A program made the translations under genes and the position numbers. From positions 4,919,957-4,983,956 of the forward strand of contig MU053881.1 of the NCBI GenBank assembly GCA_013239625.1: 64,000 nucleotides of DNA, written 5' to 3'. Positions within the stretch are counted from its first letter, which is position 1. Each line of letters begins with the position of its first letter. The stretch is from Lama guanicoe. Lineage: Eukaryota. Below the pieces are notes generated by a model, which was not told the origin of the DNA, did no database searches, and saw only the letters and a list, made by a program, of their open reading frames with translations. Shown here piece by piece: positions 52,521-64,000 of this stretch.

Positions 52521-52576
52521 CGCGACCCGGTCGGTCCTCACCGCGCGTCCCTCCCAGGGCAAGCCTGGCGCACTTA

Positions 52577-52912
<336 letters not shown>

Positions 52913-57369: not shown

Positions 57370-59589
57370 TCAAACTTTTAAATAAAAACCCAGTCGTATA
57401 TGCATAGAATATTTCTGGAAGGCTACAAAAGACTGGGGACAGCGACTGCTTCTGGGGAGAACTGAGTGACTGAGGGTCAATGTGACAAGGAAACGTACTT
57501 TTCACTGTATACCTTTTGTACCACCTTCTGGTGTACTACACAGAAGTATAACTTCTTAAAAAAAAACAAAACCAAAAACCTAATTTAAAAGAATAATGAA
57601 GTCAGACCCAAGCCACCCCCAGATTGCTCATAGTCTTAGCATCAGCAGAGTTCAAAGAACTCTTGGTTAGTACAGTTCTGCCTGGTTCCCAGAAGGTTCA
57701 AGACTTACTTGCCTACCCAGCTCACATTGAAAGCTCTGTCGCTGGACAGACATCTCAACCCCAGTGCGCTCTGAAAGCCGACATTCAGAAGCAGTTATCT
57801 GAAGTTTAAAAGCTTGGAGTCTTCCCAAAATAGCACAAGGGGACTCACTCAAGTAAGTGGACATCTGCAAATTTGATGAAAAGGTCAGTAGGAAACTGCT
57901 TAATTCAGACCCATTCCAGGAAACAGGCTAGAACCCCCACGCCTGAACCTTGATAAGCAGCCCACCCAGCTGGCATTCTCCAGTCCCCCGTCTCCCACAG
58001 CAGCCCAAACACAATACTGCTGCCTTTAACCCTCCTTCTTCGTTCAGGCATTTGTCCGAACTCCCTGGAGAAAACCTCTTCCCTGTGCCTAGGGCGACCC
58101 CCTGCCAATCTCTGAAAGACAAGCTTCTGCTGAGCTCCCCATGCTTTATGTGCGGAATCTCAAGGACTAAGTCTGGCACCTCTAATGAGGCAGGCACTCC
58201 TCTCATCTCCATTTCATAAAGGATAAAACTGAGGCCCAGAGAGGTTACGCCGTTTGCCCTGGGTCACACAGCTAGGGGCTGGCTGACTGAGCTGGGATTA
58301 GAGCTTTCAGTTGATGCTAAGTTCCTGCTTTTGATCAGGCCCCGCTGTTCACATGGCTGATGAGAAGCAGTCTGGCGTGATCTGGGAGGATTACAGCTCT
58401 CAACTATCACTTGCACTGAGCAAGTTGCTGAAAAGAAACCAAATCTGACTCCTAGGAGAAATCTCGTAATTTAAGTTTAATGATGACAGTGACAGCGGGA
58501 GCCTCGGGCCCAGACCAGGCATCCAAAGAGCTCATCCTACTGTAAACTTAATCTAGTGTGAAATCTGACTTTTATACAAATTTGGAGTCCTAAAACATGT
58601 GCTGGATGAGAATGAAGACAGAATTCAAATTAGAAAAACAAACTAAGCCCTTACTGGTCGACCTAGTTATTACGCTCGCTAGACAGAACAGCTCAATATG
58701 CTAACACAGCTACTGTGTGTGGGCACCCGCTCTGTTTTATGTGCTGTGGGTACGTATACATACACCCTAATCGACAATTTCCCACATTTCCCTGGTCATA
58801 AGTATCATACAAGGGCCGTATGGAAAATACACAGGCACACGAGACCTTAAGAGGTCTCTCTTCAGACCTGCTGCATCACAGAATCTCCAGGCAAAGAGGC
58901 GGAGACTCTTAGCAAGCACCCAAGGGACTCCTAAAATCTCAGGAGTCTGGTGGACTGCTGTTTTAATCTTCACAGCCTTGCAGATAAGCGTTCCCGGCTT
59001 CTTACATAGAACAGGGAAACAGAGGCTCCAAAGACCAGAGCCTACTCTTAAGTCAATGTCACAAAGTCAGAATGTGCACGTTGAGTTCTGTGGCTTGTGA
59101 GCTTACCAATCTTTTGTGGAAAAAATCGTTGCTTTTTTGAGTGCAAAGTGAATGTCAGAATTGGAAACAAGTTAACTGGACAGTAACAGCAATGTTAGAA
59201 TGCATCCACTCACACTTTCAAAGTGTGCTCAGAAATAGCCCATTTGATCCCGGCATTTCATTTCTGTGTTTCCCATGAGACAGGAAGGCAGTACAAGTAT
59301 CACCCTCTTTTTTCTGTAGATGAAACACACGAAAGACTGGCAGTGGGGAACTGAAAGTATGATGGATTTTATCTATAAAACAATAAATACCATTCAGGAC
59401 TAGAAAACATTTCCAGGTCTTCTTCATAAAACTATTAATTGAAACAGCAAAAGCAGATTTACAGAGCCACACATCAGTAACAAAACAGGAAGGAAACGAA
59501 CTGTTCCAGAGACATCTTGAAAAGTTTCAAAGGAATACACACCCGGCAAATAACCTACAGATAAACCGTGGCTGCACCACAGGTTAACT

Positions 59590-59715
59590 TCATTCCTGCA
59601 TTTTCTCAGCCAGTTCTTTACATTTGCCTTTCTCTTTTCCAACTTGTCGAGATTTGGCTTTGTGTTCAAGGATTTTTTTCCGATCTTTGTCCAGTTTCAG
59701 CCTGGTGATAACCAC
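59590..59715 (-). pseudogene. RPL26L1: RPL26L1 last coding exon (one codon short)
   Basis: After the CTAACAG acceptor it reads [41 protein letters not shown]. It is separated from the previous exon by a ~670-nt intron, so it is not a processed copy, and it sits in the syntenic position upstream of ATP6V0E1. Confidence 0.88.
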
Positions 59716-60383
59716 CTGTTAGCATGAAAAAACAAACATCTTAATTTTTTTTTTAAGTGGAAAGGACTTATAACTATAATTATCTTATACAGCAGATCTC
59801 CCCTTGACAATAGCAGCTACCCAACCTCCTACCTTCTAACTCCCGAGGATCTAGGACACCATTTAGACAGTTCAGTGATGAATTATCATTTAGGTTGTGA
59901 AAAATTATACTACCAACGTGGATGATTTGTTTATCACCCCTTGGCTGGCAAAATGCATTGTTTCAAAAATACCTGCATTCTAACTGGCTACTGGCAATAC
60001 AGAGATCATAAAGATGAGTAAGGCCCAACCATTCTGCCCTTAAGGATCTGAAACTCTGCAGAAGAGAGATGCTGCAATACCATGTGTAAAATGGGAGTGC
60101 AGAGGAGGAACAGTGTATTCCACTGGTGGGAGAGGGCCCCAGGAAGAGGTAGGTGTTCTCTCTTCTCCCCTGGACATCACCTGGTAAAGAAGTGATGCCT
60201 GGAATGCCTGGAACACTCCTGCAACCAGCTTGGAGATGGGGACTTCACCGAGGATGACAAAACAGACAGGTCTGCCTGACCTCCTTCTGGAAGCCCTTAC
60301 GATGGCCACCTGTGCAGACGGTACCGACACCCAACAACTCCAGCAGGAATGTTACGCTCCCTGGCTGGTACCACTGCTCGGTC

Positions 60384-60524
60384 CCGGCTTGGGTGAATGC
60401 CCACGTGGACAGTCGTGCCATTAGCCTTCTCACGCTGCACCCACTCGATGTAGATGACACGTTTCTTTCTGTACACCTGGAATCCCTTGCCGATCTGCTG
60501 ACCTTGGTAGTGTCCTCAAACCCC
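60384..60524 (-). pseudogene. RPL26L1: RPL26L1 penultimate coding exon, disrupted (in-frame TGA, lost splice donor)
   Basis: After the acceptor TTTTCCCTTAG it reads [46 protein letters not shown], homologous to uL24 [50 protein letters not shown] at 60518-60516. GA instead of GT at 60383-60382. Confidence 0.88.
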
Positions 60525-62689
60525 CTAAGGGAAAATACAAGACATTCCTTGAACTAGGATGGTCATCACAGGACTAGTCCTGAGAGTAAGAAAGTTATCA
60601 TCACTGTATACCTAAAACTAACACGATGTTATATGTCAATTATAGTTCAATTAAAAAAAATGCATATATATAATTACCCTCAAGATCTAAATAGAGAAGA
60701 ATGGTAAGAGAAATTACACTGAGATTCTCATGCAACCACCTAAAGTCTGTTTCAAGAAATAATCCATGACCTAGGAAGATGCTCAAGATATGATCTCCTG
60801 AGAAAAAAGACTACAAAGCTACATATAGAATATAGCCTGAATCTTGTGTGTGCATGTTTCATATATATGGCATAGAACACAATGAAATGAAAATAAATCC
60901 AAATGTCAATCATGGTTGCCATTGGGCAGGAAGCAGAATTACAGATGGCTATTTTAAAATGTATATTCTTCCAAATTTCAACATTTGTACAATTAATTCA
61001 AATATCTTATAATCAGAAAAAAATTAAAATGCTAAGTTACAATCTCGTGGGCTATTTTTGCATACTAAAAATCTGCTCACACTCCAGTTCTATTCAAAAA
61101 CCAACTCAACTGTGGTTTCCCTAAAGGCAAGAGCCCATTAAACAGCAGCCATAATATAAATGATGTTAACCAATACACAGAGAGAAAATATCACATAGAA
61201 AGAACTGGAAAATCTCAATACAGCTAGAATGTCTACCTAGGTTGTTCAGCTTACTCACCAAGGCGATGTTCAGGCTGAAAAGACAACAGCCAAGCACACT
61301 TCAGTGAAAATCCACCACAGTCCACATGAACAGAGATTCTCACGTGGAAAAAATTCTCTGAAAAAGCCCCTATTAACAATCATCAAGACTGAAGAAAGCT
61401 GTTAATAAAACAAGTCAAAGGAACACCCGTGATAGAGCAGTGGACAGACTAGCAAGGAGGGAGACGGGCTGAGACTAAGTGGGCTGGACTGGAAAGGTGA
61501 GGGAGGAGAGGCAAGGATGACATCCAGAGTCTGGCTGGGCACCTGGATGGATGGATATGCCTTCCCCAGAGATGGCAATTCAAAGCCTGATTTCACTTAG
61601 GGAGCTGGTGGTGAGAGAAGAGAGCAGAATGTAGAAATATGGAAGAAAAAAAAAAGTCAACATTTTGGAAGAGCTTGCCAAAGAGACTGAAGCAGCCAGA
61701 GAAAATGGGAAACCAGAGGAGTGTGGTGTTACAGGAGCCAAGAGAAGGTCAAATGTCGTGAATGGTCAACTACTGGAGGGGTAAAGTAACAGATGTGACA
61801 AGCTGGTCGCTGGTGGTCATGGCCAGAGTGCTTTTGGTGGAGCAGTGGGATGGAAGCCGTTTCCACTAGGCGATGAGTTCACCAGAGGTGAGAAGGCGAA
61901 GGTGAAAAAAGAGACCCAAGCATCTCGGGTCTGAAGAGGATGAGAGAGAGGACATGTGCTCAAGGGAGATGTTAGTTAAGGGACTTTTTTTTTAATTTTT
62001 AAAGAGGAGGAAACATGAATGTGCTTAAATGCTGGTGAGAAGGAACAAGTTTGGAGGAAGAGGTAAACTGCAGAGAAAGGGGCTAATGGACAGAAGGATC
62101 TCAGGAGGGGAGAAGAGTGGTGGGTGTCACATACCAGGGCAGAGGGATACCTTTAGATAGAAACAGGGATTTCACTTCCTCTGTAACAGGAGAGGACGAA
62201 GGCAGGAGGGTGGAACTCAGGTAAACCAGAGGGCTGGAACAGGAGCTCTGGAAGTTCCTGGATGATGGGTTTCGTTTCCTCTATCAAGCAGGGGGAATAG
62301 TCAACCGCTCAGAAAAAGCAGTAGGGGAGATTCAGAAGCTCCCAAGAGAGAAAAGGCAGTTTTAACAAACCTAATTGTGACTGTTTTATTCTCCTGGCGG
62401 ACAAGTGCTTACCCAGTATGGCTTTTGGAGTTAGAGACCTGAATTCCCAGCTCAGGCGCTCATTTTCTATACTATTTCTTTATGACTTAAACTAAGTTTC
62501 ATTTTCTTCATATCTAAAGAGAACAGTTCATATTCCGCCCTCAAAAATGGCAGCTCCGTCTCCCTGCCCTCTTTTTCTTTAGCTCACCGTCCAGTTCCAT
62601 CTAATCCATAGATTTTCATTCATTCAGTATTGACTGTGCCCTCGTTGTGTGCCCTCAGGCTCTGCACTGAGGTCTGGCAACAAAAGAAG

Positions 62690-64000
62690 TTCTCTGGCCT
62701 CCTGGACCTCAGTTTGATGGGTAGCAAGTAGTTAATAGGTAAACAGGCAAATATATGAGCACTAACTGGGAGAGGGCAGATGGTGATTAAAAACGGGTCT
62801 ACGTCGTATCAGGGTGTTGACTACGTGGTTTTATATCTGGCAAAACTCACCTGTGCATTCTACTGTACATAAATTATGCCTCGGTTGAAAAAAAAAGAAG
62901 AGATATCAAATTGTGTTCCTTGCTATGAAAGAAAAATAAACGATGCTATGCTAAAACATAGCTTAACTATCTGGGAACGCTTTTCTGAGGAGCCAACATT
63001 TAAGATAAGACCTCAAAAATGAGGAGTTAGCCAGGTAAAGAGGAGAAGAGCACTCCAGGCAGAGGGAGCACCCTGGACAAAGACCCAGAGGGTGCATTTA
63101 AGGACCCGAAAGGCCAGTGTGTTGGAAGTACAGAGCATGTGGGGGACAGTGAGATGAGAAGAGGTCAGGGAATTAGACCAGAACTGGATCACATGGGGCC
63201 TTGTCAATGATTTAGATTTTATAATTAGCACGTCAGGCACCACCGATAGGATCTGATTTGCAAATAATGCCACTCTGTGGAGGATGGACTAGGGTAAGAG
63301 GGGAAGCTGGAGATGCTGTAAATGAAAATGGAAATATAAAAAAGTGGTCAGAGTCAAGACTTATTTTGGAGGTAGAATCAATAAGAGTTAGTGACAGATT
63401 AGAAAAGAAGGGTTAGGGGAAGTTGTTAATAATAATTTAAAGGTTGATAGCATGCGCAAGTGGGGAGATAGAAGTGTCACTTACTGAGGTGGGAGAGATG
63501 GGAGGAGAATCAGATTTTAGAGGCAGTGAGAGTGTCAGGATCAAGAGGACCCTTGCATGAGAAGCTTGAGATGTCCGTGAGACAGCCAAATAAAGATGTT
63601 CAGCAGGCAGTTAGAGCTACAGGGCCGAGGTCAGAAAGATGGTTTGGACCGGAATATACAACAGGGAGGTGTTAGCACAGGGCAGACATTTAAAGCTCTG
63701 GGAATACATATTATCATCGAGGTGGACAATGTAGGCAAGACAATGGAAGACCGGGTGCCGGCCCCGACCAACTGCAGCAGTCAGGGACCAGACAGAGGAG
63801 AAACGGCTTGCAAGGGAGTCTGAGGAGTCAGAAGTAAACTGTGAACCTAAACAGAGAGACTATTTCAAGAAGGAAGGTGGTGACACATATGCAAAGTGCT
63901 GCTGAAAAAGTCAAGGACGGTGAGACCAAGATGTGCCCACTGAATTTAGTCACCAAGAGGCTACTGGTGATCTCAGCCAAAAGCAGTTTCTATAAAGTGC
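62690..64000 (+). mobile_element. LINE-2 relic
   Basis: Purine-rich, with L2 motifs (GGCCAGTGTGTTGGAA, GATCACATGGGGCCTTGT, TTTTGGAGGTAGAATCAATAAGA, CAAAGTGCTGCTGAAAAAGTCAAG). Confidence 0.7.

Follow-up and report, generated by a model that had tools for sequence, protein, structure and literature searches.

RPL26L1 is apparently a family-wide unitary pseudogene in camelids

A 64,000-nucleotide stretch of the guanaco (Lama guanicoe) genome, referred to here as the window, carries the remnant of RPL26L1, a spare ribosomal protein gene, dead at its normal site. We hold with high confidence that three lesions common to gene models from Camelus (a premature stop, the loss of a splice donor and the deletion of one codon) disabled the gene, that it was likely inactivated once, in the ancestor of all living camelids, and that it has since decayed without selection. 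No splice path through the locus yields a whole uL24 protein.

The identity of the locus, first proposed in a sequence-only reading, was borne out by gene order and by diagnostic residues. In guanaco the order is ERGIC1, RPL26L1, ATP6V0E1, with all three genes on one strand; the upstream ERGIC1 exons lie at 85–104 kb (extended coordinates, beyond the 64-kb window). The locus encodes V25 and L139, which are diagnostic for RPL26L1, where an RPL26-type gene would have I25 and T139. By flanking genes, common strand and these two residues, it is the orthologue of RPL26L1. The order of ERGIC1, a uL24 gene and ATP6V0E1 is reported likewise for chicken in a section of PMC12108394, and an ERGIC1–RPL26L1–ATP6V0E1 block is named for cattle in a section of PMC13053394. 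Human RPL26L1 (RL26L) is flanked by ERGIC1 and ATP6V0E1 like the guanaco copy, and also shares with it V25, L139 and introns that follow codons 56 and 103. One UniRef cluster comprises 72 eutherian entries in which the intact protein is the same letter for letter, whereas the guanaco copy is set apart from RPL26L1 of other eutherians by the stop at codon 59, the lost donor, the codon deletion and 15 amino-acid changes. As observations on the neighbourhood, the uL24 chain of PDB 7oya_Y1 is labelled 'ATPase H+ transporting V0 subunit e1', evidently after the neighbouring gene, and many vertebrate gene models fuse ERGIC1 in frame with RPL26L1, which hints at recurrent read-through splicing or a recurrent annotation artefact.

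Table 1. Features of the RPL26L1 locus and its surroundings (positions are those of the window unless marked as extended).
Feature	Position	Strand	Remarks
ATP6V0E1, first coding exon	52574..52681	(-)	downstream neighbour, synteny marker, outside the pseudogene
Exon 4, once the last coding exon (codons 104-145)	59590..59715	(-)	126 nt vs 129 in RPL26; acceptor intact
One-codon (Glu) deletion, KEEL to KEL	59611..59619	(-)	
Intron 3, 668 nt	59716..60383	(-)	
Lost exon-3 splice donor	60382..60383	(-)	GA where GT belongs
Former coding exon 3, codons 57-103	60384..60524	(-)	141 nt, the length of RPL26 exon 3; AG acceptor intact
Nonsense codon TGA, R59*	60516..60518	(-)	third codon of exon 3; CGA in guanaco RPL26
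Intron 2, 3' part	60525..64000	(-)	extends past the window to exon 2
Cryptic exon from intron 2	62101..62280	(-)	AG acceptor 62282-62281, GT donor 62150-62149
Exon 2	extended 65539-65372	(-)	open, 56 codons, 168 nt; 5 substitutions; start ATG and donor GT kept
Exon 1 and CpG island	about 65100-66300 (extended)		CpG o/e 0.7-0.95

Each coding lesion proposed earlier was found at the locus: a TGA in the penultimate exon where arginine is expected, the change of the following donor from GT to GA, and the loss of one codon near the C-terminus, by which exon 4 is shortened (Table 1). Every radical substitution listed earlier for this near-invariant protein was likewise present; the substitutions seen at the locus are V57G, K63Q, V70G, V71F, Y78R, R84W, K103R, R121H, Y135C and I140A. 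Exon 3 aligns with uL24 chains of known structure (E 1e-19), a homology far above chance, and 8 of its 47 codons are altered relative to the conserved eutherian protein, one of them to a stop. Exon 4 still encodes the UFM1-target lysines K132 and K134.

The earlier reading had also counted as a lesion the absence of a minus-strand AATAAA near the stop. None was found in the 2089 nt 3' of the stop, so the observation stood; as evidence of damage it is weak. Since only 0.14 copies are expected per 500 nt by chance, variant signals follow the stop (GATAAA at +216, ATTAAA at +622) and intact RPL26 itself has ATTAAA, we rejected the missing AATAAA as a disabling lesion.

Introns, both acceptors and the promoter are in place, as expected of a genomic locus rather than a retrocopy. 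The exons measure 168, 141 and 126 nt and the introns 4.8 kb and 668 nt, an unprocessed structure. We rejected the reading as a processed pseudogene, because introns, promoter and synteny are kept; processed RPL26 pseudogenes likewise have a broken uL24 coding sequence, and the dead locus differs from them in these same three respects. R59* and the GT to GA change, both common to Camelus models, are disabling mutations. In being unprocessed, disabled at the orthologous site and accompanied by functional orthologues in relatives, the locus resembles the unitary pseudogenes defined by Zhang et al. (2010), as far as covered in part of that paper (PMC2864566).

The upstream exons sought past the window were located as exon 2 and a CpG-island exon 1 region (Table 1); the exon 2 translation is identical to that of the alpaca RefSeq model at 56 of 56 residues. 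Two gene models choose the cryptic exon in intron 2: alpaca RefSeq XP_072803329.1, which runs on in it until a stop, and the model of the wild camel. It diverges like non-coding DNA, and a genome search with it as query returned no match but itself; the pyrimidine-rich DNA around it may come from an old L2 element, which it resembles. Elsewhere in intron 2, a stretch on the minus strand at about 61430-61050 contains what could be a small cassette (ttttcag ... gtgagt, around 61280-61255); the stretch might represent conserved non-coding sequence or a minor exon. A second GC/CpG-rich patch lies at extended 66930-67240, some 1 kb further upstream than the RPL26L1 promoter, and could be a divergent or alternative promoter.

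The breaks were then compared with predicted proteins of three Camelus species from separate assemblies, each break being seen in one model. Bactrian camel XP_074206386.1 ends in ...VQGV, that is, with the V57G change followed by a stop at the same place as R59*. Wild camel EPY82229.1 passes the end of exon 3 (..SR, then D) into the same intron sequence, a read-through that a GA donor there requires. Dromedary KAB1260117.1 skips exon 3 and lacks the same codon, with R121H and Y135C. The lesions might in principle be assembly errors or an allele private to one animal. However, the three breaks recur in models from independent assemblies, and 14 of 24 listed sequencing runs contain 0.91-0.97 of the window's sampled words (11 such runs, from 4 studies and 5 organism labels, when the possible source study is left out), a word content that supports the window as a whole and not single lesion bases. 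We regard the probability of such errors or of a private allele as negligible and rejected this reading on the recurrence of the breaks in Camelus, which also makes them older than the camel/llama split.

Comparison of the substitutions gave nine shared by guanaco and Camelus, seven private to guanaco and seven private to Camelus, with K63Q unplaced. The shared lesions and substitutions indicate that RPL26L1 was already decaying before Old World and New World camelids separated, 11-25 million years ago according to part of PMC4884201. The ratio of shared to private changes is 1.29, with a broad 95% interval (0.49-3.19) that does not allow firm dating; it suggests that decay before the split lasted a comparable span, which, if the split is put at 11-17 million years ago, would place the loss at ~25-40 million years. 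The upper bound rests on dolphin, hippo and ruminants, pig not being among the sequences: RPL26L1 is intact in these outgroups, matching the conserved protein at 145 of 145 residues in dolphin, deer and sheep and at 144 of 145 in hippo. The lineage-specific loss proposed earlier is real, but it is family-wide and old, being common to Camelus, and probably not unique among mammals.

Two intronic stretches that are translated in the wild camel model served as a neutral yardstick, a protein-level proxy and not dN/dS. Between guanaco and Camelus, 13 of 139 residues differ in the old exons and 8 of 67 in the intron-derived stretches (Fisher p=0.63), whereas RPL26 shows 0 of 145 (p=7e-5 against the old exons). 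Judged by this proxy, divergence in the old exons since the camel/llama split has kept pace with that of intron sequence, as in neutral evolution after inactivation, which argues against constraint on either the full protein or a 97-residue form without exon 3. Such a form, in which exon 2 would splice in frame to exon 4 and the product take on a new role, is exactly what the dromedary model depicts, and cattle and sloth models skip likewise. Both exons are phase 0, nothing is damaged in the ATG, the donor of exon 2, the acceptor of exon 4 or the CpG island, and the product would keep the basic N-terminus and the UFM1-target lysines while bypassing the stop and the bad donor. Yet exons 2 and 4 alone differ between guanaco and Camelus at 7 of 97 residues, which resembles the intron-derived stretches (p=0.41) and contrasts with RPL26 (0 of 98, p=0.007); the product would be without residues 57-103, and the precomputed Pfam list holds no KOW domain match. 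The exon skips were, we infer, picked by gene predictors merely to avoid stops, and a shortened survivor seems to us highly improbable.

The CpG island, the ATG, the exon-2 donor and both acceptors remain signs against the death of RPL26L1, and databases still annotate the gene as protein-coding. The protein might have died and the locus been kept as a non-coding or regulatory unit, as a promoter or through ERGIC1 read-through. Several mammalian models join ERGIC1 to RPL26L1, and RefSeq still builds transcripts at the locus in alpaca and Bactrian camel; the island itself persists, with a CpG o/e of 0.7-0.95. An island that stays unmethylated in the germ line can, however, be retained passively. 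We judge retention of this kind unlikely; it is in any case compatible with neutral decay of the coding gene and not exclusive of it. In that preferred account, transcripts from the surviving promoter, if made, would stop at codon 59 and be predicted targets of nonsense-mediated decay; alternatively exon 3 would be skipped, giving 97 residues without the core of the fold, or the cryptic intronic exon at 62280 would be used, as in two annotation pipelines. Six RNA runs contain 0.12-0.24 of the window's words and carry no weight on splicing.

A protein search of the 2.05 Gb guanaco genome gave 24 uL24 matches among the 34 best-scoring candidates, a lower bound. Two are intron-containing loci, RPL26L1 and RPL26, and the rest are processed copies; a second intact intron-containing copy, sought because it would have spoken against a loss, was found in none of the matches listed besides RPL26. 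Within the reach of this search there is no functional copy of the orthologue elsewhere in the genome, and an unplaced intact duplicate is improbable; the paralogue RPL26 is functional. RPL26 (uL24, Pfam PF16906), on contig C4274, has 145 intact codons, canonical splice sites and 0 of 145 differences from dromedary RPL26. It shares with the dead locus its exon structure and phases and ~80% of the nucleotides of exons 2 and 3, and is unlike it in being intact and at a different location. The intact RPL26 and RPL26L1 proteins differ at two residues, I25V and T139L. The loss of RPL26L1 was likely tolerated because RPL26 differs at these two residues only and carries K132 and K134, and RPL26 would supply all uL24, including these UFM1-accepting lysines. 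At 13 processed loci examined, L139 occurred in none (T in 8; 5 not informative). One retrocopy of RPL26 (C8676:1303876-1304310) is intronless with an open 145-codon frame and T139; it differs from RPL26 at 23 nucleotides and 12 amino acids (12 non-synonymous against 9 synonymous codons). We considered it as a backup for RPL26 and did not favour it on account of its 12 amino-acid changes; it is most likely decaying. The earlier statement that RPL26 is left without backup holds for intron-containing genes, with this open but diverged retrocopy as a small caveat. DNA-mediated duplicates of mammalian ribosomal protein genes are rare, 99.8% being RNA-mediated according to part of PMC4219774; the name RPL26L1 is absent from its supplement.

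The dead locus is probably the older of the two. Among 16 model fragments, 9 of which gave matches, those of electric eel, turtle, thrush, turkey and platypus are fused models that put a uL24 gene beside ATP6V0E1 or ERGIC1, and such diagnostic residues as they show are of RPL26 type; fragments from falcon, opossum, echidna, anole, dunnart, wombat and langur (7 of 16) gave no match. A bat RPL26 model is fused to a RING gene, and guanaco RPL26 on C4274 adjoins a RING gene matching this RNF222-type model. Since the dead gene occupies the old vertebrate uL24 site, RPL26L1 is likely the parental uL24 copy and RPL26 a relocated duplicate, as far as gene order can tell.

Damage to RPL26L1 was also seen outside camelids. 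Thirty-six RPL26L1-type models, picked by name from search output and not a systematic sample, comprised 13 identical to the conserved protein, 8 differing at 1-3 residues, 2 partial, and 13 broken or diverged (three Bos, two seals, two otters, mink, bear, two eared seals, sloth and hare), of which some may be odd isoforms or retrocopies and only those of Bos and bear are supported as the RPL26L1 locus. Cattle RefSeq RPL26L1 has 108 residues, a frameshift after exon 3 and four exon-3 substitutions, with sheep and deer intact; it looks independently broken. In cattle, RPL26L1 is a frequently proposed candidate gene within a QTL block for body size, according to a section of PMC13053394. Models from bear, seal, otter, mink and eared seal have at least 4 changes or no start codon (both eared-seal models are without the start Met), and lynx models are intact, a pattern that suggests relaxed selection in arctoid carnivores. 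To judge from such models, loss of RPL26L1 is probably recurrent among mammals. To our knowledge, RPL26L1 is absent in mouse. We lean slightly towards a wider view, in which RPL26L1, as the parental uL24 gene, still occupies the ancestral site of vertebrates, gave way in mammals to the relocated DNA duplicate RPL26 and is now being lost repeatedly (fully in camelids, by a frameshifting junction change in Bos, by relaxation or loss in bears, mustelids, seals and sea lions), although dozens of other placentals keep it letter-identical.

Among the matches listed for RPL26L1 with camel, pseudogene or gene loss, no title concerned its loss in any mammal; subscription papers lay mostly outside that search, and genome-wide loss tables may list it. 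The camelid gene is a family-wide unitary pseudogene, apparently unreported, and is mis-annotated as coding. The event is of an ordinary kind, a unitary pseudogene with a near-identical paralogue remaining, and is useful as a natural knockout; unlike the loss of GULO or UOX, it has left no biochemical function clearly lost. RPL26L1 is said to replace RPL26 in part. A section of PMC12108394 mentions such partial replacement at second hand. From parts of the respective sources, K132 and K134 are the UFMylated lysines of RPL26 and RPL26L1 is also listed as a UFM1 substrate (PMC7916544); RPL26L1 is listed as an RPL26 paralogue (PMC10093926), is testis-enriched with significance unknown (PMC7671327), is raised in breast carcinoma (PMC5123215), and on knockdown lowers cardiomyocyte proliferation, being a candidate for hypoplastic left heart (PMC12698088).

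The annotation stands corrected by these results, as alpaca, Bactrian, dromedary and wild camel databases carry four different protein models of one dead gene. The camelid loss bears on claims for human RPL26L1, from testis enrichment (PMC7671327) to heart roles (PMC12698088), and camelid cells would offer a single-uL24 background for UFMylation work. If the wider view is true, the affected lineages would form a natural knockout series for the function of a testis-enriched ribosomal paralogue that differs at two residues. The camelid case shows that mammals can do without RPL26L1 over tens of millions of years; this favours a role in dosage or as backup at the tissue level over one in an essential specialised ribosome.
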